Below are positions 11,071-28,058 of a DNA stretch of 64,000 bases, in pieces; the first letter of the stretch is position 1; every line of letters begins with the position of its first letter. The DNA is from Candidatus Woesearchaeota archaeon (GTDB taxonomy: Archaea; Nanobdellota; Nanobdellia; Woesearchaeales; GW2011-AR15). A program made the position numbers and the translations under genes. The notes under the pieces are model-generated. The model saw only the letters and a list, made by a program, of their open reading frames with translations, was not told the origin of the DNA and searched no databases. Location: contig JAVZBY010000004.1 of assembly GCA_038874655.1 (NCBI GenBank), forward strand, positions 11,116-75,115. The letters run 5' to 3'.

Positions 11071-12405
11071 TTGAGAATGCAAGAAAATGTTGATTTATTA
11101 GGTTTGGAAGGTTTAGGAAGAATTGCTCTTTTAGGATTATCAATAAGAGGACATTTACAACAAGGCCATATTGAAGGTGCATTAGGTTTTCTATCTAAAA
11201 ATTTAAACCTTCTAAAACAATATCCGGATTTCAAAAAATTCAAATTTTCTAGCTTTGATGAAAATTTTAAACCACCTTATGCAAATATTACACCTTTTGA
11301 TATTTTATTTTCCTTATACTCAAACAACATAATTCCTTATGAACCAAATCAAATTTTTAAAGAAATGCAAAGGCAAATAGATGAAGTTTTTATGTTTGTT
11401 TTAAAATTAGTAGATTCTATTTCAAATTATGACAATTATAGAGGACAAAGAATAAAATTTCTTGAAAGCGATGGGAAAACACCTTTGTTTGGGCTAACTG
11501 ATTTGTTAGAATATGAAATAACTCAACCTGAACAAGCAATGGCTTTTTTGACATGCTTTGGATGGGGTCTTGGAAAGATGGATTCTTTTGAGCATAGATA
11601 TAATACAGGATTGCCTTTTGGCGGTGGCATTAATCTACCTATTAATTTGGAAAATTTACCAAATGGAAAAAATAATATCTGGCATGATGTCATAACATTA
11701 AGCCTAATTCATTTGCCAGAAGAATTAGGGATAATACAACCACCTAATTTAGAAAAATTAATGAAACTTTTTAATTATAAAATTTTAAAACCACTTCAAG
11801 AGATTGGATTAATTCAAAACGAAGCTGTACAAGGTCCTAATACTCTAGATGGCTATGTTAGAATATTAAGAGGTCCAGGAAGTGCTGATTTTATGTCATA
11901 TGTTTTTTCTTGGATCATTTATGGCCCTTATGGAGGGTTAGGAATGAGAGTTGCTGATTTTTGGGACACTGCTGAACAAATTTCATCAAAAATCGTCTAT
12001 GGGGGTCAAGACAACCTAGCATATGAGGAATTATTAAAATTACCAAAATTTAAAGAACTAATTGATTCTAATAAACCGTTAGATTTAGCACTTTCAAAAT
12101 GGTCTTTTGAAGACCCAAAAGCTAGATTTAAACCAATTGAAAGTTGTAGTGAAAGATATTTTTTGCAGGGATATAATAGTATTAGAGGCCCATTTAATAC
12201 AATAATCACACAATATAACTTTTTAAAACATTTACCTGAACAATTTAATAGAGGAAGCGTTGAAAGATCAATACCTCAATTCCCTGTTGGTTTTGGAAGA
12301 GCTTCCTCCAGAGGCTATTTTGATTATATACTACAAAGACTACATGAATTTAATAACTTAGGGATAATTCCAAATTGGTCATATTTTGCAAAAGTGCTTA
12401 ATTAA
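11071..12405 (+). CDS. Hypothetical protein; start codon uncertain
   Basis: Long ORF. The frame stays open back to 10975, and a strong SD (10964..10971) sits about 100 nt upstream of the first TTG/ATG. No recognisable domain. Confidence 0.4.
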   Translation: MRMQENVDLLGLEGLGRIALLGLSIRGHLQQGHIEGALGFLSKNLNLLKQYPDFKKFKFSSFDENFKPPYANITPFDILFSLYSNNIIPYEPNQIFKEMQRQIDEVFMFVLKLVDSISNYDNYRGQRIKFLESDGKTPLFGLTDLLEYEITQPEQAMAFLTCFGWGLGKMDSFEHRYNTGLPFGGGINLPINLENLPNGKNNIWHDVITLSLIHLPEELGIIQPPNLEKLMKLFNYKILKPLQEIGLIQNEAVQGPNTLDGYVRILRGPGSADFMSYVFSWIIYGPYGGLGMRVADFWDTAEQISSKIVYGGQDNLAYEELLKLPKFKELIDSNKPLDLALSKWSFEDPKARFKPIESCSERYFLQGYNSIRGPFNTIITQYNFLKHLPEQFNRGSVERSIPQFPVGFGRASSRGYFDYILQRLHEFNNLGIIPNWSYFAKVLN

Positions 12406-12432
12406 AAGAATTTCAAATTAAATATTATTATA

Positions 12433-13104
12433 ATGGTAAAAAATTTTACTTATTTAGGAATTGATGAAACAACACTTGGCATAGAAACAGGTTGCATTGT
12501 TGTAGCAGCTGAAACTAAAAATCCTGAATTAACAAAACCAAACTATTCCTTTTCTTTAAAAAAAGGTAAAGATTATCTTAGAGAAGCTGAAGCATTAGTT
12601 GATAATTATATAAACCCAAATAATCTTCCAAATTTACCTACACCAGAACAAATGATTAGAGTAGGTATGTCTAATTATCATTGGCTTCGTATTAATAATG
12701 GAAGATTCAATAGACAAGGAATAGAACATGCTGGAGTAGCTCATTTAATCTCTTGTAATGGTTATTCTCCACAAGAATTAGTTGTCTTAATTGATGCTTT
12801 TCATGGAAACTTAGAAGAAAGTAAAGAAATAATTTTAGAGATACTCAAAAAAAGAGAGTTTTATTTACCAAAACAAAATATAGATTTTTGGTTTTCAGGA
12901 GATAAAGCGATTCCAATTATAAATTTTGCAGATTTATTAGCACTTCAGATTGGTTTATACCTAAATGAAAAATACAGACCTTATTTTCCAGAAAGAAAAA
13001 GGTTTCCAATAAAACCACATGAAATTAGTTATGAGAAAAAAAGAATGCCCCCTATAGATACAAATTCCAGAAAAACGCTTGAAGAAATTTTAAAGAAAAA
13101 CTAA
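12433..13104 (+). CDS. Hypothetical protein
   Basis: ORF only. A weak GIDE-like N-terminal motif is not enough to call RNase HII. Confidence 0.35.
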   Translation: MVKNFTYLGIDETTLGIETGCIVVAAETKNPELTKPNYSFSLKKGKDYLREAEALVDNYINPNNLPNLPTPEQMIRVGMSNYHWLRINNGRFNRQGIEHAGVAHLISCNGYSPQELVVLIDAFHGNLEESKEIILEILKKREFYLPKQNIDFWFSGDKAIPIINFADLLALQIGLYLNEKYRPYFPERKRFPIKPHEISYEKKRMPPIDTNSRKTLEEILKKN

Positions 13105-13116
13105 ATTATAAAAAAA

Positions 13117-13722
13117 TTATTTCTTTCCAATTTCTTTTTTCGCCTTTTCACTAACAATAGCAGAATTTCCACTAGGATCACTAATAATTAATGTTGCTTT
13201 TTCTCTTCCCCATAAAATTCTTTGTATTTTTTTCAACTGATTTTTTGCCTTTTTTTGAACACTTGGATCATCATCATCTTTTAAATCTTCAATTACTTTT
13301 TTAACTCTATTTAATATGCCTTCTACATTTGTGACATAACCATTTGAAATTGGTCCAGGAGTTATTTCTATTAAATGTGGAATTTTTATAGTTGCTTGAC
13401 TTGATTTAACCACTCTTATATTTAAATCATTTTCTGATTCAATTTCTAAAGTATATTTAACTGGTTTTCCGTCATTATCTGTTTCAACATCAGCCATATG
13501 ATAATTACAATTTGAGCAATCCATTGAAAATAGATAACACTTACCAAAATAGGGAATTTCTCTTTCCATTTCTCTTAATGTCAATGTTTCTTTATGACAC
13601 ATAGGGCATGGTTGATTTTCTAAAACATCCATTCCCATATTTTCATTTGAAATATTCTTTGTATTTTGAGATTTTTCTAATTCTGAGTTTTCATCATTTT
13701 TATCATAATCCTTATTTACCAT
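13117..13722 (-). CDS. ZPR1-type zinc finger protein
   Basis: CPMC..CSNC zinc ribbon followed by a ZPR1-like beta domain. About 200 aa, as in archaeal ZPR1 homologues. Confidence 0.6.
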   Translation of the reverse strand: MVNKDYDKNDENSELEKSQNTKNISNENMGMDVLENQPCPMCHKETLTLREMEREIPYFGKCYLFSMDCSNCNYHMADVETDNDGKPVKYTLEIESENDLNIRVVKSSQATIKIPHLIEITPGPISNGYVTNVEGILNRVKKVIEDLKDDDDPSVQKKAKNQLKKIQRILWGREKATLIISDPSGNSAIVSEKAKKEIGKK

Positions 13723-17984: not shown

Positions 17985-18527
17985 GTGGAAAAATATTTAA
18001 CCATTTTGAGCCCTTTTTTTGAAAACCCAAATGAGAAATATTCTATAAGAGAACTTTCTAGGCTCTTACAAATTAACCATACAACTGTGCGACAATATCT
18101 TGAAATTTTAGCAAAAGAAAACTATTTAACATTCAAAAAAGAAGGGATTTATATTTTTTATAACTTAATTTTATCTAAAAAAACTTTGAATCTAAAACTT
18201 TACTATAATTTAGAAAAATTAAGAAAATCTAACTTAGTTGAGGATTTAGAAAAATTTTATGATTATCCTGTGATTGTTTTATTTGGTAGTTATGCATTTG
18301 CTATGGATGATATTACAAGTGATATTGATATTTGTATAATTACAAACATTAAAAAAGAATTTATTTATGAAAACAATTTGGAAAAATACGAACATATAAT
18401 TAATAGAAAGATAAGCATACATAAATTTTCAAAAGAATCTTTTGAAAAAACAAAAAAAGTGAATCCAAATTTAATAAATAATATTTGCAATGGGATTGTG
18501 TTGTCAGGAGAATTGGTGATTGTATGA
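17985..18527 (+). CDS. HTH plus minimal nucleotidyltransferase (MNT) domain protein
   Basis: GTG start. N-terminal winged-helix region. LFGSYA..DSDIDI is the GS-x-D-x-D NTase signature. The stop overlaps the next start as ATGA. Confidence 0.65.
   Translation: MEKYLTILSPFFENPNEKYSIRELSRLLQINHTTVRQYLEILAKENYLTFKKEGIYIFYNLILSKKTLNLKLYYNLEKLRKSNLVEDLEKFYDYPVIVLFGSYAFAMDDITSDIDICIITNIKKEFIYENNLEKYEHIINRKISIHKFSKESFEKTKKVNPNLINNICNGIVLSGELVIV
18524..18527 (+). promoter_or_regulatory. ATGA start/stop overlap (translational coupling of the MNT-HEPN pair)
   Basis: The TGA stop of the NTase gene shares the TG with the ATG of the downstream gene. Confidence 0.6.
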
Positions 18528-18937
18528 ATTTTGATACATTATTAGAAAAAGGCATTGTAAAAAAGATTATTCCAAATAAATTAAGAGCCAATAGTTTAAT
18601 TATTGCTTCAAAACAAGCAATTGAAACAGCAAAATTAATTGAGATTAATAATAATACCTTAAAATCAATATTAAGAGAATTATATGAAGGATTGAGACAA
18701 TATTGTGAGGCACTTGGTTATTTAAGAGGATATAAATTTTTAGACCATGAATCCATAACTTATTTTTTAAAAGATATTTTAAAAGAAGAGAGTTTATCAA
18801 AAAGATTTGATAAATATAGAAAATTAAGAAATGGGATTAATTATTATGGCGATGATATAGATATAGAAACAATTAAAGAAGCTTTAATAGAAATTCCAAA
18901 AATAATAAAAGATTTAGAAAAACATAAAAAAACATAA
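18524..18937 (+). CDS. HEPN-domain protein, partner of the preceding MNT
   Basis: All-helical ~137-aa protein with an R-N-G-x-x-Y-Y-G block in the Rx4-6H position. Classic MNT-HEPN gene order. Confidence 0.55.
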   Translation: MNFDTLLEKGIVKKIIPNKLRANSLIIASKQAIETAKLIEINNNTLKSILRELYEGLRQYCEALGYLRGYKFLDHESITYFLKDILKEESLSKRFDKYRKLRNGINYYGDDIDIETIKEALIEIPKIIKDLEKHKKT

Positions 18938-18998: not shown

Positions 18999-20138
18999 TT
19001 AATCTACAAACTCTATTCCTAATTCTGATTCAATGTCCTTTTTCTTTTTCTCTGCCAACTTTTTACTAGAACCAAAGATTTGTGAGCTTTTTACTCCTGT
19101 AATTATTAAAATTGTTCTTATAGTGCCTTCTAAATCTTCTGAAATTTGCGCTCCCCATATAACTCTTGCATCTTCATCTAATTTTGTTGAAACAGTTTCT
19201 ACAACTTTTCTTGCTTCTTCTAAGGTCATATCTGGTCCGCCTGCAACATTTATTAAGGCTCCAGTTGCACCGCTAATATCAACATCCAATAATGGATTTT
19301 CAATTGCTTTTTGCACTGCTTCAATAGCCCTATTTTCAGAATCAGATTCACCTACACCAATCAAAGCAACTCCACCAGAGCCCATTATTGCTCTTATATC
19401 TGCAAAATCCAAATTAACTAAACCTGTTTTTGTTACTAATTCTGCAATACCTTTAACTGCATTTGTTAAGATTTCATCAGCAACCTTAAATGCTGTATGT
19501 AATGGTAAATCTGGTGCTAATTCTAATAATTTATCATTTGGAATAACAATTAAAGTATCAACATTTTTTTCTAATTTTTCTAAACCTAAAACAGCATTTT
19601 CATATCTTCTATTTCCTTCCATGGAAAAAGGCATTGTTACTATGCCTACAACCAAGGCACCTAATTTTTTAGCAACTTCGGCAACAACAGGCGCGGATCC
19701 AGTTCCTGTTCCTCCACCTAAACCACATGTAATAAAAACCATATCTGCTCCTTGTAAAGCGTTTTTTATCTCTGCTTCTTGTTCTCTAGCAGCTTCTTCA
19801 CCAATTTTTGGAATACTTCCTGCACCTAATCCTTTTGTCAATTCTTTTCCAATCAAAATTTTTTTATCTGCTGCTGTATACAATAAATCTTGTGCATCTG
19901 TATTTATAGCAATTGTCTCTGCTCCAGTAACACCCACTTCTGTAATTCTATTAATAGTATTATTACCTCCACCACCACAACCAACTACCTTTATAGTTGC
20001 TCTTTGTTTTGCCAATAATTCTTCTAATTCTTTATCAATAGCACTTTGTTTCATATGCTCAATAGAAACACCTTTTGGTGATAAAGAAGCCCTTTGTGTT
20101 CCTGATTTTATTATACTATCCAATATAAACACCTCCAC
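18999..20138 (-). CDS. ftsZ: Cell division GTPase FtsZ
   Basis: GGGTGTG tubulin signature and the full FtsZ fold sequence. Confidence 0.9.
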
Positions 20139-20301
20139 CCATTAAAATAAAAATTTACTAATAAAAAATTTATAATTACTTAATTGTAGTGCTAATATTT
20201 AAACTTTTATATTTCAAACTATATTCAAAACCTCTTTTTTAATAAAAATGAAAGATTAATAACAAATTAATAGTTAAACAAAATATTTATTTAATTATTT
20301 T

Positions 20302-21033
20302 TTAATTATTTTTTTTTTCGCTTGTTGTTTCTATTGCCTTTTCATTATGTGCTTCACTATGCTTTTTAGAAACATCTTTTATCTCTGGAATTAATTTTAA
20401 AATTCTCTCTTTAATTGCGTTTAAAACTTCATCAGGAATCTTTTCATCAATAACTAAAATTTCATTTTCTATCTTCATCTCTGGTAAAAAATTAAACTCG
20501 TTTTTCAAAACAGCTTTTGCTTTTTCTAATGGCTCATCTATTTTTTTATTGACTTTTATGTGATATTTTACTCTTTTTCCAGCTAATGGATGGTTAAAAT
20601 CAACTATTACTCTACCGCCTGAAACACTTCTAACAACACCATACATATTATCAACATTAACCTCTAATCCTGGAAAAGGATTTATCTTTTCTTTTAAAAA
20701 AACTTTCATTGGTAATAATTTTAATAATTGTGCATTTTTCTTTCCAAATGCATTTTCAGGTTCTAGTTCAATATCAAATGTTGAAATACCTTTTTCCTGT
20801 ATTGCTTTATCTAGTGAATTTAAGATATGATTTTCACCTAAACAAATTACTACTGGCCCAAAATTTCCTTGTCTTGTTAATCCAGAAGATTTTGCTAAAT
20901 TTTCATCAGTAGTATCAAACAAAGTATTATCTTCTAATCTTCCTGTGTATTCAATTTCAACAAAATCATGAACTTTTAATTTTAAATCTGAGATTGATTC
21001 AGATTTTTCTTCAGTATGGTTTGTTTTTGTCAT
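20302..21033 (-). CDS. FKBP-type peptidyl-prolyl cis-trans isomerase (long archaeal form with IF insert)
   Basis: FKBP core VEIEYTG..LFD plus an IF-domain insert and a C-terminal helical extension. Confidence 0.75.
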   Translation of the reverse strand: MTKTNHTEEKSESISDLKLKVHDFVEIEYTGRLEDNTLFDTTDENLAKSSGLTRQGNFGPVVICLGENHILNSLDKAIQEKGISTFDIELEPENAFGKKNAQLLKLLPMKVFLKEKINPFPGLEVNVDNMYGVVRSVSGGRVIVDFNHPLAGKRVKYHIKVNKKIDEPLEKAKAVLKNEFNFLPEMKIENEILVIDEKIPDEVLNAIKERILKLIPEIKDVSKKHSEAHNEKAIETTSEKKNN

Positions 21034-21147
21034 TCTTTTAAAGTAGATTAGATGTATATTTAAATAATTTACTTAAAAAGGGAACAAATTAAAAATACAA
21101 AAAATACAGAAAAATTAATAAAACTTAAAAATTTTAATATTATAATT

Positions 21148-22956
21148 TTGGATGAAAAATTGAATAAAAAAAAAGAAACTTCACTCTTGTATTTAGTTGG
21201 ATTTATATTTTTATTAGATATAAATATAGTTTTAGCACAATCATCTGGACAAAGTTTTGTTAGAGCATTAAATCCTTTCTGGAATTTAATTTCATATATA
21301 TTTAAAGATTTACTACAACCCTCTACAAGGTACATATTTTTTAAATTTTTAGTTTGGATGCTATTATGGATTTTTTTAATGCTACTAGCTCCAAAAGCAT
21401 TAGAATCTTTAAAAGCTGACAATGACACAGCAAAAAAACAAGCAAACATAATTACATTTATTCTAGCTTTAATAATGACAATTGGAATTCCTAATGCTGC
21501 ATTAGAGTTAATTTTTAGTTCTTATGCTTTTTTAGGTTTTCTTTTTATTATGTTTATAGGACCAGCACTTTTTATAGGTGGTAAAACGCCACAAAATAAC
21601 TTTGCTAGAGGAGGAATTTTTATATTAATTGGAATAATAATATATGCTTATGATAGTTTTGCTTCAAATTTAAGTGATATTTTTATCTTAGGAGCAACTT
21701 TATCTATAATATATGGGATAATAATGTGGATTAATGGCTTATCCATAGGTGGATCTTTAACAGGAATAAGTAAAAAAGAGCCCAGTAATCCAAAAGATCC
21801 AATAACAAATAAAGAAATAGAACAAGAAAAAGACTCTGAATTAAAAAAATTAAAACAAGAGATTAAAGCACTTTTTGAGTTAAATAGGGAATTTTCAAAA
21901 GATGTTGAGGTAATTCAAAATAATGTTTCAGATTTAAGAAAGAAAAATATATTATCATTAAAAAGAGAATTAAATCTAGAGCAAAAGAAACAAAGATTAA
22001 ATAATGTAGAAGCTCAATTTTCTGTTCCTTTAGAAAAGGTTAATCCTATTATTCAAATTATACAAAACATAAAACAAAATCCAAAATTTTCACAATTAGG
22101 CTTTTTTGACAAAAAAAAACCTATGTCCGGGTTTGATAATGTCGTAAAGTCATTTATAATTAATTATAAAATTCTTATTAGCTTATTAAGAGATTATGCA
22201 CTTTATAAAGGCGAGTTATTAAGTGAAAAAGAAGAAAATTTACATAACATATTAAAAGAACATATTGATAAATTAAAAAAAACTTTTGAGATTGTTGGAA
22301 AAACAGCTGATTCTGAAACATTAAAATTAGAAGCACAAATAAATAATTTAGAAAATGAGATTGTTGCGGCAATACAAAAAGGAAAAAAGCAGAAAAAAGA
22401 GAAATTGCTGAAATTAATAAGTGATTTAGAAAATGATTTCAATAATATGGACACAGAATTAAAAAATTATGGCTCTTTAATTGATAGTGAAATCAAAAAG
22501 ATTAATGAATATATTAATGCTGATGATTTAAGAAAAAACCAGATCATATCCGAAATAAAAAATAATTTAAGTAAATTCCAAAATGCTTTTAACTCTGGTT
22601 TGAGATATTTAAGAAATATGACAAGAAAAGGCATTAAAGAAGAAAAAAAATTTCATCAGAAAATTATCGAAATAAAAGATTATGCTAATTATTTAGAAAA
22701 TGATGATTTAAAAATTGAAAATGCTTACAACACTTGGATTGCATGGGTTAAAGAAATAGAAGAAGAGCTAAAAAAATTAGATGAAATAAATAAAAAAATT
22801 AAAACAATAAACTATGAAGCAGATCTTATAAATTTATTTAAGCAAGAAGAACAATTATTATCAAAATTTTATCAATCAATCCAAAAGTCAGAAAGTGTAT
22901 GCAAAGCATTATTAGAAGGCTATAGAAAATTAGCCAATGAAGTTCAAAATTTATAA
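21148..22956 (+). CDS. Signal peptide plus multi-TM N-domain plus long coiled-coil protein (paralogue 1)
   Basis: TTG start. Signal peptide ending VLAQSS. About 200 aa with four or five TM helices, then ~400 aa of coiled-coil-like K/E/N-rich heptads. The N-domain aligns to the next gene. Confidence 0.5.
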   Translation: MDEKLNKKKETSLLYLVGFIFLLDINIVLAQSSGQSFVRALNPFWNLISYIFKDLLQPSTRYIFFKFLVWMLLWIFLMLLAPKALESLKADNDTAKKQANIITFILALIMTIGIPNAALELIFSSYAFLGFLFIMFIGPALFIGGKTPQNNFARGGIFILIGIIIYAYDSFASNLSDIFILGATLSIIYGIIMWINGLSIGGSLTGISKKEPSNPKDPITNKEIEQEKDSELKKLKQEIKALFELNREFSKDVEVIQNNVSDLRKKNILSLKRELNLEQKKQRLNNVEAQFSVPLEKVNPIIQIIQNIKQNPKFSQLGFFDKKKPMSGFDNVVKSFIINYKILISLLRDYALYKGELLSEKEENLHNILKEHIDKLKKTFEIVGKTADSETLKLEAQINNLENEIVAAIQKGKKQKKEKLLKLISDLENDFNNMDTELKNYGSLIDSEIKKINEYINADDLRKNQIISEIKNNLSKFQNAFNSGLRYLRNMTRKGIKEEKKFHQKIIEIKDYANYLENDDLKIENAYNTWIAWVKEIEEELKKLDEINKKIKTINYEADLINLFKQEEQLLSKFYQSIQKSESVCKALLEGYRKLANEVQNL

Positions 22957-22976
22957 ATACATTTATGTGAATAAAA

Positions 22977-24548
22977 ATGCTAAAAGAACAAAAAAAGATT
23001 TTAAAATTTTCATTTTTATTATTGGTTGGTTTCTTAATTATAGATTTTGTCAGTGCTCAAACCACATATAGAGCATTAAAACCTTTTTGGGATTTTATTG
23101 CTTATATATTCAGTGTTTTACCTAGTGGCACAACAAAGTATGTCTTTTATAAATTTATTATTTGGATGTTATTAGCTTCTGTTTTAATATTACTAGTTCC
23201 AAATTCATTAGCTTTTTTGAGATCAGAAGATCCAACAGTAAAAAAGAATGCAAAAATTATTGCTTGGATTTTATCATTAATGATGTCAATTGGAATTCCA
23301 AATTCTATATTAGATTTAATTTTCAATTCTTATTCCCTTATTGGTGCATTTTTATTGTTAGCTGTTGGTCCTGCTTTAATATTTGCACTCACAAACAAAA
23401 GTAATAGAAGATTAAGAGGAATTGCTTTTTTAGTTTCTGGTGTTTTATTAATGATATTCGCTACTACAGGAACAGTTAATGAATGGCTAAATTTATGGGA
23501 TTTACTAGACTGGATTAATCTTGGTGGTTTCATAATGATGATTATAGGATTAGTAATGATAATACAAGGTGATGAAAAAACTATTACTAATGATGAACTA
23601 AATAGTTCTAATTCCTCAAATAATGATTATAATCAAAATCCAATTCAAAATCATGAAACATTTGAAAAAGAAAAAGCAAAAAACTCTTTGCATCTGATTG
23701 ATGAAATATTAAATGAGATTAATGAATTTAATAATAAATTAGTTGAGAAAATTAGCTTAATTGAAAATGAAATTAACGATTATAGAAATGAAATAAAAAT
23801 ATTAGAAGAATTACTCCAAAAAATAAAAGAATTAAAAGAAAGAATATCACATGTTTCAATTATAAATGATCACCTTTCTGATGAAAAAGCAATAAAGGGA
23901 TTGAAAGAAGAAATAGAAAATAAATTAAATTTAGGTTCTGGACACAATATAACAACTGCTATTAGAGATTTAAAAACATTAGAAAAACATTTATCAACAA
24001 TAGATCAACATATTGTTGAATTACAAAGAAAACAAAATACATTGATAACAAAATCTAAAAATAATTTATGGAATGTTGATAATTCATTAGAAGGACAAAC
24101 TTCAAATCAAGATTTAGCTAATCTAATACAAGAAACAAGACACTTAATTAGAGATATAGTATCAAAAATTGATCAAATAAAAAAAATAGAGCATTTGAAT
24201 GAAAGAGCAGAATCCCAAATAATAGAACAAAATAGAAATGAGATTATACAAGGGAGTAATATAGATAGTTTAATTAATGCTATAAAAACATTATGTGATG
24301 AAGTTATAAATAAGAAAAATAATAATAAATTAAATTCATTAAAAACAAATATAACCCATTTACTACATTTTTTAGAAACACAACCAAATCATAGTTCTCC
24401 TGGAGGTAAAATAGCACATAAATTAAGAATACATGAAACCTTACAACAAATATCAAGAAATATAAATGAAGAAGGTAAAATATCAGATGAAATAATAAAT
24501 GAACTAAATCAATTAAAGCAACAACTACAAGTAATTTCTAAGGAATAA
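22977..24548 (+). CDS. Signal peptide plus multi-TM N-domain plus long coiled-coil protein (paralogue 2)
   Basis: Signal peptide ending VSAQTT. The N-domain matches paralogue 1 (RALxPFW, KYxFxKFxxWMLL, MxIGIPNxxLxLIF, GPAL). Coiled-coil C-terminal region. Confidence 0.5.
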   Translation: MLKEQKKILKFSFLLLVGFLIIDFVSAQTTYRALKPFWDFIAYIFSVLPSGTTKYVFYKFIIWMLLASVLILLVPNSLAFLRSEDPTVKKNAKIIAWILSLMMSIGIPNSILDLIFNSYSLIGAFLLLAVGPALIFALTNKSNRRLRGIAFLVSGVLLMIFATTGTVNEWLNLWDLLDWINLGGFIMMIIGLVMIIQGDEKTITNDELNSSNSSNNDYNQNPIQNHETFEKEKAKNSLHLIDEILNEINEFNNKLVEKISLIENEINDYRNEIKILEELLQKIKELKERISHVSIINDHLSDEKAIKGLKEEIENKLNLGSGHNITTAIRDLKTLEKHLSTIDQHIVELQRKQNTLITKSKNNLWNVDNSLEGQTSNQDLANLIQETRHLIRDIVSKIDQIKKIEHLNERAESQIIEQNRNEIIQGSNIDSLINAIKTLCDEVINKKNNNKLNSLKTNITHLLHFLETQPNHSSPGGKIAHKLRIHETLQQISRNINEEGKISDEIINELNQLKQQLQVISKE

Positions 24549-24660
24549 GAAGAAAATATTTTTTAAAAACCCAAACTTTTATAAACTCTAATTTTCTTAA
24601 AAAAATATAAAATAAAAATTTAAAATCAAATCAAAGATTAAATCATAAAAGAGGTGCAAA

Positions 24661-25368
24661 ATGGAAATTCAAATTTCTAAAAAAATAACAAAACCAAAAA
24701 TAATCCAAGGTTTTCCTGGATTTGGATTAATTGGAACAATAGCAACTGAATTTTTAATTGAACATTTAAATGCTGAAAAAATTGGCTCTTTTATTTATGA
24801 CGAGTTGCCTGCTACAGTGGCAATCCACAAAGAAAAATTAGTTGATCCTATGGGTATATTTTATGATAAAGAATATAACTTGATTATACTTCACACAATA
24901 TTAAATTCCAATGGATTAGAATGGAAACTAGCAGAAAATATATTAAAATTAGCAGATGATACTAACACAACAGAAATCATTTCATTAGAAGGTGTTTCTA
25001 GTCCTACTGTTAACGGTTCTGAAAAAGTTTTTTTCTATACTGAAAACGAAAAAACAAAATCAAAACTAAAAGAAATTGGATTAGAACCATTAAAAGAATC
25101 CATTATTGTCGGTGTATCTGGTGCATTAATGCTAAGATCAAAAATACCTTTAACTTGTTTATTTGCAGAAACAAAAAGCGAAATTCCTGATAGTAAAGCT
25201 GCTTCTAACATAATTAAAGCATTAGACGATTATCTAGGGTTAAAAGTTGATTATCAACCATTATTAAAACAAGCAGAGGAATTTGAGCAAAAATTCAAGA
25301 CAATATTAAAACAAAGCTCTTCTGCAATAAAAGAGAGAGACAGAAAACAGATGAGCTATTTCGGATAA
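24661..25368 (+). CDS. PAC2-family proteasome assembly chaperone
   Basis: The hallmark IQGFPGFGLIGTIA N-terminal motif. About 235 aa. Confidence 0.55.
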   Translation: MEIQISKKITKPKIIQGFPGFGLIGTIATEFLIEHLNAEKIGSFIYDELPATVAIHKEKLVDPMGIFYDKEYNLIILHTILNSNGLEWKLAENILKLADDTNTTEIISLEGVSSPTVNGSEKVFFYTENEKTKSKLKEIGLEPLKESIIVGVSGALMLRSKIPLTCLFAETKSEIPDSKAASNIIKALDDYLGLKVDYQPLLKQAEEFEQKFKTILKQSSSAIKERDRKQMSYFG

Positions 25369-25392: not shown

Positions 25393-26097
25393 TTATTTTT
25401 TATCTTTATTATTTTTCTTTTTAACTTCTCTTTTAATTTCTTTTTTAATAAAATTTACTTTATTAAACTCTTCTTTGCTTTTTTTATTCTTAATTAATTT
25501 TTCATCTAAACTCTCTTCATCATTAATCTCTTTATTCAATTTTTTTATATCCTTTTCAACATTTTCCAAAAATTTTTGCATTTCTTCATAGGATCTTGGC
25601 TCTAAATAAGAATACAAAAACCTTATAACAACTATCATAAAAAAGAATAATATTACAGCAAAAAAGACACTTAACAAATGAAAGAAGCTTTCATTATTTA
25701 ATAAATCACTATAAACTAAAACAATTGTTATATAAGTAAAAAAAGCAATAACAGATTTAGAAGACATCTTAAAAATTGTTTTTAATGGTAATTTATGGAA
25801 AAAATCATATACAGATACTATTAAAGTAAAAATTAAAAATATAAAAATAACTAATGCCTTTGCTAAATTTAAATCATAGTTTATTAAATATCTGATTAAA
25901 TCAAAATAAACAAAAATAAGAAAAATAGAGCTCTCTAAACTTTTATGATGCCCAAACCCTTCTCTTGGATATTTATAAAAATAGATTTCCATTAATGCAA
26001 TCGCAAAAAATAAAGGCAATAATATCCAAAGCATTTCTTTATAAATTAAAGGTGCATATAAAAATTCTAAAAAAGTACTAAACAAATCATTAAACAT
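25393..26097 (-). CDS. Hypothetical membrane protein with a charged C-terminal tail
   Basis: About six predicted TM helices followed by a K/E-rich tail. Confidence 0.4.
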   Translation of the reverse strand: MFNDLFSTFLEFLYAPLIYKEMLWILLPLFFAIALMEIYFYKYPREGFGHHKSLESSIFLIFVYFDLIRYLINYDLNLAKALVIFIFLIFTLIVSVYDFFHKLPLKTIFKMSSKSVIAFFTYITIVLVYSDLLNNESFFHLLSVFFAVILFFFMIVVIRFLYSYLEPRSYEEMQKFLENVEKDIKKLNKEINDEESLDEKLIKNKKSKEEFNKVNFIKKEIKREVKKKNNKDKK

Positions 26098-26200: not shown

Positions 26201-27406
26201 TCATACCAAATAAAATAAAACAGGAATTAATAAACAACCCATTGCATGATTTCTAGCAACACCCTTTAAAGGTGCCAATAATCCTATTGATGTAGCACAT
26301 ATTAAAATTAAAATTCCTATCAATCCATTTAAAATAAAAGACCTAAAGACAATAAATAAAATAACAAATAAAACCATTATTTGATAATTTATCCTTATAA
26401 TTAAACTAGAAAATATTTTAGAAAAATAACAAACCAAAAAAACAGAAAAACTCCCAGAAAAAAGCATAGCAAAAATTAAAATTAAAAAAATATCAAAATC
26501 TAATTTAATCAATTTAGATAATACCACAATAGAACCATCTTTAGCTTTACCTAAAACATAGAAAGTAACTAATGAAAAAACAACACTCATTGTGCCTTGT
26601 GCTCCAACTAAAGCTAAATAAGTTTTATCTTTAATATTTTTTACAAACTGAGAAGCTATTACAGCTCCTTGAGCAGGCCCTAATCCAGGAAAAAATTGGA
26701 TCAAAAAAACACCTATTGAACTACCAAAAATAGAAGAAAAAACTTCTCTAAAAGATATATCTATTTTTTTATCTATTTTCTGCTCAGGAATTTTAGTATT
26801 TTCATTGAAACTTATAATTAACCCTGAAACACCAAATAATCCTGATAAAATTGGAAACAAAGGCTCTTTTAAATTCATAGAAAAAACAATTAAACCTAAG
26901 CATCCAGAAATCAAAAAAATAAAAAAAGCAAGAAAAAAATTTTTTTCTCTTATAATCATATAAAAGATAATTAAACTTAAAAAATAAATAACATAGGGCT
27001 TAAAAAGAGGGTAAAAATTTTTAGCAATAAAAAAAAATAAAGGAATTAATAAAACAGCAAAAATCATTCCTAAAAATGTGCCTAATATTGTTATTTTTAC
27101 TGCCATATAAGCTTCACCTTTTAAAAGCATTTTTTGTCCTGGCAATACACTTAAAGCATTTTCATTTTCTGGTGCTCCTAAATAAACACTTGGAATAGTG
27201 TCTAAAAAAGAATGTGTTATTGAAAGCGAGATAATAAAAACTGCTAATGACAAAGGTTGCAAGTAATTTAACAAAAAAGGAGATAATGCTAACAAAGTAG
27301 TTGCAACTAAATTTACATGTATTCCTGGCATTAATCCTGTAAAAATTCCAATGAAAATTCCTAAAAACATTAAAAAAATAACCTCAATAAATAAAATTTT
27401 AAACAT
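26201..27406 (-). CDS. TctA/DUF112-family membrane protein
   Basis: Polytopic membrane protein. GLMPGIHVN and PGLGPAQGA blocks resemble the TctA family. Confidence 0.45.
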   Translation of the reverse strand: MFKILFIEVIFLMFLGIFIGIFTGLMPGIHVNLVATTLLALSPFLLNYLQPLSLAVFIISLSITHSFLDTIPSVYLGAPENENALSVLPGQKMLLKGEAYMAVKITILGTFLGMIFAVLLIPLFFFIAKNFYPLFKPYVIYFLSLIIFYMIIREKNFFLAFFIFLISGCLGLIVFSMNLKEPLFPILSGLFGVSGLIISFNENTKIPEQKIDKKIDISFREVFSSIFGSSIGVFLIQFFPGLGPAQGAVIASQFVKNIKDKTYLALVGAQGTMSVVFSLVTFYVLGKAKDGSIVVLSKLIKLDFDIFLILIFAMLFSGSFSVFLVCYFSKIFSSLIIRINYQIMVLFVILFIVFRSFILNGLIGILILICATSIGLLAPLKGVARNHAMGCLLIPVLFYLV

Positions 27407-27641
27407 TAATATATTAGTAAAATAATAGTATTTATATTTTTTATTAAAGATAAGAAAATCTTAATTAAAAGTTCAAATATAACAAAAAATAAAAACTCTT
27501 CAATTTAAATAAAAAAATAAATTAAAAAAGACAAAAGCATCACAATAAAAACATATATTTCAATAAAAAAGCATATATTTAAATATTTAAACTACAATTT
27601 AAAATTTGATTATTTTTAATTTAAGTTATAGAGGTGTAAAA

Positions 27642-28058
27642 ATGAAACACTTTTTTAACAAAATAAAAGAAAAAGTTAAAAAATGGGGCTTTGATGACGA
27701 AGCTAATGAAGATGTTGAAGAAGAATATTTAGAATTAGATGCTGCTGTTAAAAAATCTGCATCACAAAAGATTATAGTAAGACCTTTTGTTTTAGATGAT
27801 TTCTCAGATGTAAAAGAAGTTGTTGATACAATAAGAGAAGGTTATTCTATTGCTTTAGTAAATATAAAAGCTTTAAGAGAAAAAGACATGGTTGAATTAA
27901 GAAGAGCAATAAACAAATTAAAGAAAACATGCGATGCAATTGGCGGTGATATTGCAGGATTTGGAGAAGATTATATTGTAGTAACCCCAAGTTTTGCAGA
28001 AATATATAGAACAAAAGAAAATCAAACATCAGAAGTTAAAGAAGAAAAAGAAGAATAA
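27642..28058 (+). CDS. sepF: Cell division protein SepF
   Basis: SD gaggtg 5 nt before ATG 27642. IIVRPFVLDDFSDVKEVVDTIREGYSIALVNIKAL..GGDIAGFGEDYIVVTP matches the SepF/DUF552 core. Confidence 0.65.
   Translation: MKHFFNKIKEKVKKWGFDDEANEDVEEEYLELDAAVKKSASQKIIVRPFVLDDFSDVKEVVDTIREGYSIALVNIKALREKDMVELRRAINKLKKTCDAIGGDIAGFGEDYIVVTPSFAEIYRTKENQTSEVKEEKEE

Follow-up and report, generated by a model that had tools for sequence, protein, structure and literature searches.

In EzrA and ZipA, which are bacterial FtsZ regulators, an N-terminal membrane anchor is joined to a large cytoplasmic region, which is either helical (with spectrin-like repeats in EzrA) or made of a linker and a globular part, and which organises a cytoskeletal ring at the membrane. 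In archaea, the haloarchaeal division-ring anchor CdpA (HVO_0739) consists of an N-terminal transmembrane (TM) domain, a disordered linker and a small C-terminal domain (CTD) (PMC12126565), and in CdpC a linker connects an amphipathic helix to a CTD (bioRxiv 10.64898/2026.07.16.738847). Here we analysed two adjacent genes, A and B, located in a 64,000-nucleotide stretch of DNA from a Candidatus Woesearchaeota archaeon (assembly GCA_038874655.1, contig JAVZBY010000004.1, positions 11,116 to 75,115; the whole stretch is called the window). The two genes define a rare protein family restricted to DPANN archaea. It is of modular build: a signal peptide and a five-TM domain are constant, the helical cargo that follows, predicted to be cytoplasmic, is variable, and a partner is either fused to the anchor or free. 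We tentatively propose that the products of A and B form a membrane-anchored cytoplasmic scaffold, in which A would be an anchor fused to its customary soluble partner. An earlier, sequence-only reading had taken the pair for a recently duplicated family of surface filaments or tethers, a view that we revise below on both counts.

A lineage-specific family with a common membrane domain

Gene A (21148..22956, + strand) and gene B (22977..24548, +) were found, as had been claimed, as two open reading frames (ORFs) on the same strand, of 602 and 523 aa. Their products were 35% identical across the N-terminal 266 aa (E 2e-43, BLASTP) and about 40% identical within the N-domain, and their C-terminal parts did not align; this agrees with the earlier description of a paralogous pair with a common N-terminal module and diverging C-terminal parts. 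The N-domain occupies residues 32-200 of A (21241..21747, +), with an amphipathic helix that carries the PFW motif and five TM helices, and residues 28-198 of B (23058..23570, +), likewise with five TM helices. All of the motifs quoted in the sequence-only reading could be located: the RALxPFWxxIxYIF block corresponds to RALNPFWNLISYIF in A and to RALKPFWDFIAYIF in B, and the MxIGIPNxxLxLIF and GPAL motifs are present. One correction was needed, as the [RK]YxFxKFxxWMLL motif opens with R, not K, in A.

On the basis of Kyte-Doolittle hydropathy and AlphaFold2 modelling, the N-terminal part was predicted to begin with a signal-peptide helix, followed by a short amphipathic helix at residues 37-54, whose polarity keeps it from scoring as a TM segment on the Kyte-Doolittle scale, and by five TM helices, located in A at about residues 61-87, 93-112, 116-146, 151-169 and 176-200. 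Where four or five TM helices had been suggested, both methods indicated five and not four. The AlphaFold2 model of the N-domain had a mean predicted local distance difference test (pLDDT) score of 78.5 and a predicted template modelling (pTM) score of 0.59 with a 22-sequence alignment. P115, which lies in IGIPN at the turn between TM2 and TM3, was invariant in a set of 22 diverse N-domains, in which A30, L55, K66, W70, L108 and G190 were at least 90% conserved. The near-invariant K66 lies inside TM1, and N116, S125 and Y126 are conserved polar positions.

Such conservation could mean that the five-helix domain is itself the functional unit, for example a small channel, a transporter or a lipid-handling protein, with a tail that gates, regulates or oligomerises it, as in Hv1 or CorA-type channels. 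Simple anchors are seldom conserved to this degree, the N-domain is far better conserved than most of the tails (76% vs 35% in B), and the lysine inside TM1, the invariant proline at the TM2-TM3 turn and the conserved polar residues would all suit such a function. However, no similarity of the N-domain to known transporter or channel families was found in Pfam, NCBIfam or PDB sequences, a pore is not evident among only five short helices, and substrate-related genes are not consistently located nearby. We consider a channel or transporter function unlikely, and we regard the N-domain in the first place as the anchor of the proposed scaffold.

To describe the distribution of the family, the N-domain profile was run exhaustively with HMMER against 1.84 billion representatives, which gave 44 clusters at E <= 1e-3 and 25 at E <= 1e-10. 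Throughout the 44 clusters, the named members all belong to Ca. Woesearchaeota, 'Nanoarchaeota archaeon' or archaeon GW2011_AR15 (AJF61890.1, on the 1.16-Mb record CP010425.1), that is, to DPANN, and the earlier suggestion of a lineage-specific family is therefore well founded. Within the window the family is represented by two copies only, A and B. Other searches added little: the word-index homologue searches had very low recall (2, 1 and 5 matches) and missed existing proteins, the related-locus search with a 4-sequence alignment returned only the known contig from GTDB genomes and nothing from JGI metagenomes, and a literature search on Woesearchaeota coiled-coil membrane proteins gave nothing relevant.

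Neither protein could be assigned to a described family. Both A and B remained below all Pfam and NCBIfam cut-offs (the best matches were DUF7014, with 20.1 vs 27 bits, and KIF9, with 17 vs 31.9), no match to these libraries, even a sub-threshold one, fell in the N-domain of either protein, and a Pfam scan of 43 family members revealed no family covering the N-domain. A search of PDB sequences with the N-domain profile gave nothing better than E 0.1, and the PDB sequence-profile searches overall gave nothing below E 0.05. In Pfam, no MCPsignal, HAMP or kinase domain was detected in A or B at E up to 1. PHROGs contained no match for either protein, blastn against a phage collection returned none, and PADLOC gave only matches of about 15 bits, in the coiled-coil region.

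Downstream of TM5, the relatives carry low-complexity linkers that are G/RG-rich, K/E-rich or P/T-rich, and their C-domains are unrelated between subgroups of the family. One member (P0034, 811 aa, from a Logan contig) has, between the N-domain and a C-terminal coiled coil, a linker rich in Pro and an inserted Peptidase_C1 domain that is papain-like (E 3e-10). Taken together, the varied linkers, the unrelated C-domains and the papain-like domain are what would be expected of a constant anchor that carries variable cargo.

The tandem of A followed by B was also present in three other Woesearchaeota assemblies, namely L002/L003 (metagenome-assembled genome, MAG, GCA_038825025.1), L004 (GCA_038824935.1) and L001 (a Logan contig); in addition, the product of gene B is identical to MEM3374383.1 from a Candidatus Woesearchaeota MAG. 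A was 61-78% identical to its orthologues (40% to that of L001) and B was 69-76% identical to its own in the N-domain, whereas A and B, compared within or between genomes, were 31-41% identical. A and B thus form separate orthologous groups, and since the identities within the groups exceed those between them, the duplication predates the divergence of these genomes. A recent duplication, as had been proposed, is rejected in view of these identities and of the conservation of the tandem in four genomes.

Helical tails, their predicted orientation and the soluble partners

The tail of A consists of a linker with a first helical module (residues 201-324; 21748..22119, +), the module being found only in A-type orthologues, and of a second helical module (residues 325-602; 22120..22953, +). 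The tail of B (residues 199-523; 23571..24545, +) comprises an N/Q/S-rich linker and a heptad-rich helical domain. The composition of the tails (K 15%, E 11.5% and N 10% in A; I 14%, N 13%, E 11% and K 10% in B) is K/E/N/I/L-rich and bears out the earlier description of K/E/N-rich, diverging C-terminal parts. Heptad periodicity was estimated in 28-residue windows as the hydrophobic occupancy of the a/d positions minus the occupancy elsewhere, which is a simple ad hoc score and not COILS or DeepCoil. A score of at least 0.6 was obtained for 80% of the tail residues in A and 58% in B, in comparison to 8% and 6% in shuffled sequences, and the observed coverage was matched by none of 200 shuffles. 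Breaks at Gly and Pro divide this signal, giving seven segments for A and four for B, of 30-87 residues each, and the AlphaFold2 monomer model of full-length A (pLDDT 65.5, three-sequence alignment) contained helices of 10-57 residues folded into bundles. Of the 'very long coiled coil' noted previously, the heptad signal can be retained, being far above that of the shuffles, but the great length is probably overstated, given the broken segments and the short modelled helices. The tail of A is conserved like its N-domain (62-83% across orthologues) and is therefore not mere low complexity. The tail of B is fast-evolving, with 28-35% identity across orthologues (for L004, 35% vs 76% in the N-domain).

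The signal peptide of A (residues 1-31; 21148..21240, +) has a K-rich n-region, with KKKE, and a hydrophobic h-region, and ends with IVLA|QS; the Sec-type signal peptide of B (residues 1-27; 22977..23057, +) contains KEQKK and ends with FVSA|QT. The AQ(S/T) ending that was noticed earlier is thus LAQS in A and SAQT in B. On sequence inspection, both leaders fit the pattern of class I signal peptides, in which a positive n-region precedes 10-20 hydrophobic residues (the h-region) and the -3/-1 positions are small (AxA). The A|Q pair closes the hydrophobic leader in 24 of the 34 N-complete family members; this is a typical signal peptidase I site, at which the leader is predicted to be cleaved. 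A class III (prepilin/archaellin) signal peptide was also considered, owing to the Peptidase_A24 gene that neighbours some relatives, and was rejected: the [KR][GA] motif is absent, neither A nor B has a Gly or Ala residue separating the charged n-region from the h-region, and the class III motif fits only one of the 34 relatives (P0026, RG|IVVV).

According to the positive-inside rule, loops rich in K and R are cytoplasmic. Averaged over the 22-sequence alignment, the net charge (K+R minus D+E) was +2.6 in the n-region, -1.1 in the mature N-segment, +1.3 in loop 1, -0.4 in the TM2-TM3 turn, +1.5 in loop 3 and -0.7 in loop 4, and K+R amounted to 5.9 in loops 1 and 3 vs 2.1 in the N-segment, the turn and loop 4. 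This alternation, read with the positive-inside rule, places loops 1 and 3 and the chain after TM5 in the cytoplasm. If the amphipathic helix 37-54 were a membrane-crossing segment, both K/R-rich loops would turn outward. We therefore predict, with good confidence, a cytoplasmic C-terminus, on the basis of the positive-inside rule and of a free-standing homologue of the A tail described below; about 50 residues of each protein would then be located outside the cell.

This orientation bears directly on the proposal of the sequence-only reading that the proteins are extracellular coiled-coil filaments or tethers for attachment to host cells. In its favour, A and B have a signal peptide and a strong heptad pattern, P/T-rich linkers occur in some relatives and a papain-like domain in one, as is common in secreted proteins, and the organism is a DPANN archaeon. 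However, the charge alternation places the C-terminus inside, the number of TM helices past the signal peptide is odd (five), RG/G-rich and K/E-rich linkers follow TM5, and the helices are broken into segments of 10-57 residues modelled as bundles. Moreover, the tail module of A is also encountered as a protein of its own that lacks both signal peptide and TM segment, and the partner proteins are soluble and have no leader. An extracellular filament or tether appears very improbable to us, and A and B can be dropped as candidate surface filaments for host attachment, a point of importance to those who mine DPANN genomes for symbiosis factors.

The free-standing homologue comes from locus L005. 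There, the gene for the family member P0005 is followed immediately by one whose 309-aa product has neither a signal peptide nor a TM segment (maximum KD19, the 19-residue Kyte-Doolittle mean, 0.90; no hydrophobic segment). This protein is collinear with A residues ~325-602 (E 5e-9 over the best segment, BLASTP), and the two have in common the motifs GLRYLR/GVRFLR, AYNTWIAWVKEIEE/AFNDWIGWIKAIEQ and QKSESVC/QNADSTA, which in residues 325-602 of A take the forms GLRYLR, AYNxWIxWxKxIEQ and QxSESVC. As a protein without any hydrophobic segment should be cytoplasmic, the homologous tail of A is predicted to be cytoplasmic as well. The A tail also gave a weak profile match to the tail of another member, P0013. 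At loci L006, L010/L011 and L013, the family gene is likewise followed by a gene for a soluble helical protein, here of 362-375 aa (maximum KD19 <= 1.13); the partners from L006, L011 and L013 are 23-25% identical to each other. With respect to the stop of the family gene, the partner gene starts at +16 nt in L005 and at +1 nt in L013, and in L006 and L011 the genes overlap by 4 nt, which suggests co-expression. The simplest reading of these sequences is that a family protein usually acts together with a soluble helical partner that evolves fast, and that gene A represents a partner-type module fused to a duplicated anchor in the lineage of the window. Locus L005 contains a second family member as well (12348-13547, +; profile E 8.5e-70), which was missed by gene callers; two short reverse-strand ORFs were called instead.

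In L005, L009, L010/L011 (AR15) and L013, these genes belong to a recurring cassette of Peptidase_A24 (-), a two-TM protein of 80-84 aa (-), the family gene (+) and the soluble protein of 309-375 aa (+), although the L009 contig stops short of the position of the soluble partner. The cassette is also present, without A24, in L006/L007/L008, and glycosyltransferase genes follow it in L005, L006/L008 and L013. This may indicate a module of cell-envelope biogenesis (surface glycosylation, S-layer or type IV filament-related), in which the membrane domain and the two-TM protein link cytoplasmic factors outward; the conserved extracellular PFW helix could then touch envelope components. In the window and in L004, however, A24, the small protein and glycosyltransferases are missing beside the pair, and a search of the window for the 80-aa two-TM protein, Peptidase_A24 and an L011-type partner found none of them. 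There are no pilus ATPase or platform genes nearby, the signal peptide of the family is of class I, not class III, and the synteny may simply mirror the common ancestry of gene order within one order. An envelope module of this kind seems to us quite unlikely.

The two-TM protein deserves a description of its own. It is conserved and is encoded on the - strand at 9647-9889 in L005, 9664-9906 in L006, 9671-9916 in L009, 9643-9897 in L011 and 7647-7895 in L013, has no Pfam family, and carries the motif ..HF[HE][IL]P[AF]QF.LG.. and a C-terminal WRPR[IL][YW]L. Its start, with PAQF followed by a hydrophobic stretch, is similar to a site of prepilin-type cleavage that has Gln in position +1.

The proposed scaffold and its genomic context

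The membrane-anchored cytoplasmic scaffold, which we prefer while holding it tentatively, could be assembled as follows. A and B would be inserted through the Sec pathway by means of a cleavable signal peptide. After cleavage, only the short N-terminal amphipathic helix and two short loops would remain outside, and the chain would cross the membrane five times and end in the cytoplasm, where a low-complexity linker would carry the helical, heptad-rich domain. The five-helix domain would be the constant module; it would anchor the protein in the membrane and probably also mediate oligomerisation or the binding of a partner. The cytoplasmic tail would be the module that varies. Most relatives would pair the membrane protein with a soluble helical protein, probably co-translated from the overlapping or abutting gene; in the lineage of the window, a partner-type domain would have been fused to a second copy of the anchor to give gene A. 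The membrane domains of A and B being homologous, the two proteins probably associate with each other, and together, probably as a hetero-oligomer, they would keep helical assemblies in place on the cytoplasmic side of the membrane. The scaffold role is what we infer from the computed paralogy, distribution, synteny, charge alternation and fused or free state of the C-terminal module.

Several observations weigh against this proposal. The 40 residues that follow TM5 are not net positive (K+R 5.2 vs D+E 6.7), the P/T-rich linkers of P0009 and P0034 and the papain-like domain of P0034 are more typical of extracellular proteins, and the cytoplasmic orientation is predicted from the positive-inside rule and the free homologue. 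The tail of A showed no similarity to the partners from L006, L011 and L013 (hhalign probability 0.7-1.2%). The strong conservation of the N-domain, with its invariant Pro and buried Lys, suggests a role beyond anchoring. Finally, the adjacency to ftsZ described below is absent in the distant loci L005, L006, L009, L011 and L013. What is left by the scaffold and the alternatives weighed above would fall to some other explanation.

The window is archaeal, with 24-25% G+C, and in it the A/B pair is flanked by genes of cell division. The ftsZ gene (18999-20138, -) lies two genes upstream of A, separated from it by a gene for an FKBP-type isomerase (20302-21033, -), and sepF (27606-28058, +) lies about 3 kb downstream of B, so that ftsZ and sepF are found within 9 kb. 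Between B and sepF there are a PAC2-family gene (24661-25368, +), a gene convergent with it (25393-26097, -), whose product is a weakly DUF2070-like membrane protein that is K-rich at its C-terminus, and tctA (26201-27406, -); an Nre gene is also located near the pair. The order in L004 is as in the window (ftsZ, one gene, A, B, PAC2, DUF2070-like, tctA), with ftsZ again two genes upstream. Downstream of the family gene, at a distance of 0.1-4.5 kb, a PAC2 gene is found in the window, L004, L005, L006/L008 and L010/L011, and the weakly DUF2070-like neighbour is present in the window, L004 and L005. As the linkage to ftsZ is lost in distant relatives, a role in division is only a possibility. 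A bolder extension, which we regard as a long shot, is that the family and its soluble partner, with the two-TM protein in most lineages, make up an unknown DPANN-specific cytoskeletal or membrane-remodelling apparatus associated with the membrane, possibly organising division or the membrane at cell-cell contacts. If true, such an apparatus would serve ultra-small archaea that are without most of the known divisome anchors.

DPANN archaea have tiny genomes with many conserved genes that have no assigned function. If the family indeed anchors cytoskeletal or division components, it would provide a missing membrane anchor for the little-known cell biology of Woesearchaeota. At present it should be viewed as a lineage-specific family with a predicted topology and not as a demonstrated new mechanism.

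The TTG start of the first gene, noted before, was confirmed, with a probable shift in its position. The maximal ORF of A begins with TTG at 21148, and a second in-frame TTG at 21160 (+) gives a product of 598 aa, which is the NCBI annotation QXE31_04125 (P0046). There is no in-frame ATG upstream of the first membrane segment of A, the orthologues start with TTG (L002) or GTG (L004), each directly after a common TTGGAT[AG]AAA, and their N-termini align best with the 21160 start; for these reasons 21160 is the likelier start, and the codon is TTG under either option. The TTGGAT[AG]AAA element before the non-ATG starts of A and its orthologues (21148-21162 in the window, 422-434 in L002 and 3531-3543 in L004) may be a translation-initiation signal. 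Gene B starts with ATG. The spacer between the two genes (22957..22976, +) is 20 bp long and has no T-run, and a T6 run (24559..24564, +), 11 nt past the stop codon of B, is a possible archaeal oligo-T terminator; A and B are probably co-transcribed as one unit.

Some further features of the region were recorded. Tandem-repeat scans of the A/B region gave only A-rich low-complexity matches. Long or medium-sized ORFs antisense to ftsZ and gene A (19033-20145, +; 21069-21449, -; 22203-22454, -) have low-complexity translations; rather than genes, they most likely represent shadow ORFs, as arise in an AT-rich genome. Further upstream, a small protein with an ArsR-type helix-turn-helix and a nucleotidyltransferase (Pol-beta-like) domain is encoded at 17985-18527 (+) and is followed by a 150-aa ORF without a family match (18485-18937); the two may constitute an MNT/HEPN-like toxin-antitoxin pair.

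Comparison with known systems

Among the polytopic proteins with a cytoplasmic coiled-coil tail, ZorA of the Zorya system, MotA and ExbB resemble A and B in having a polytopic N-terminal domain with a conserved Pro and a long tail of this kind, and some relatives of A and B also have a small membrane protein as a neighbour. However, neither A nor B matched MotA_ExbB or ZorA in Pfam or PADLOC, the small neighbour of the relatives has no conserved Asp in its TM segments and is absent from the window, and the genes stand in a chromosomal housekeeping context and not in a defence island. In EzrA and ZipA the anchor is a single TM helix without a signal peptide, unlike in A and B, and no match of A or B to either was found in Pfam at E up to 1.

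A fused vs split ('Rosetta stone') pair is a classic signature of two proteins that work together, although it is an evolutionary pattern and not a protein family. The C-module of A, fused in the lineage of the window and encoded by a separate gene downstream of the anchor in L005, fits this pattern; the homology was shown for the L005 partner only (BLASTP 5e-9), and not for those from L006, L011 and L013.

The closest likeness, in layout only, is to CdpA, which is also archaeal and also combines a conserved N-terminal polytopic domain, a low-complexity cytoplasmic linker and a cytoplasmic C-terminal domain. The position of A and B between ftsZ and sepF is a further point of likeness, but the linkage to ftsZ is not kept in distant members of the family. 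CdpA has four TM helices, no reported signal peptide and a 44-aa CTD, whereas in A and B a signal peptide precedes five TM helices, and a short linker leads to helical tails of 300-400 aa. They are set apart from CdpA by this layout, and no haloarchaeal name occurs among the named clusters of the 44, which speaks indirectly against homology to CdpA. The family thus appears to stand outside all of the groups compared, that is, EzrA/ZipA, MotA/ExbB/ZorA, methyl-accepting chemotaxis proteins and transporters, and, as judged by layout, CdpA. Relative to the libraries searched, the sequence family, its module of a signal peptide plus five TM helices and the fused vs split partner are new, and its manner of working, by analogy that of a membrane-anchored coiled-coil scaffold, would be of a kind already known.

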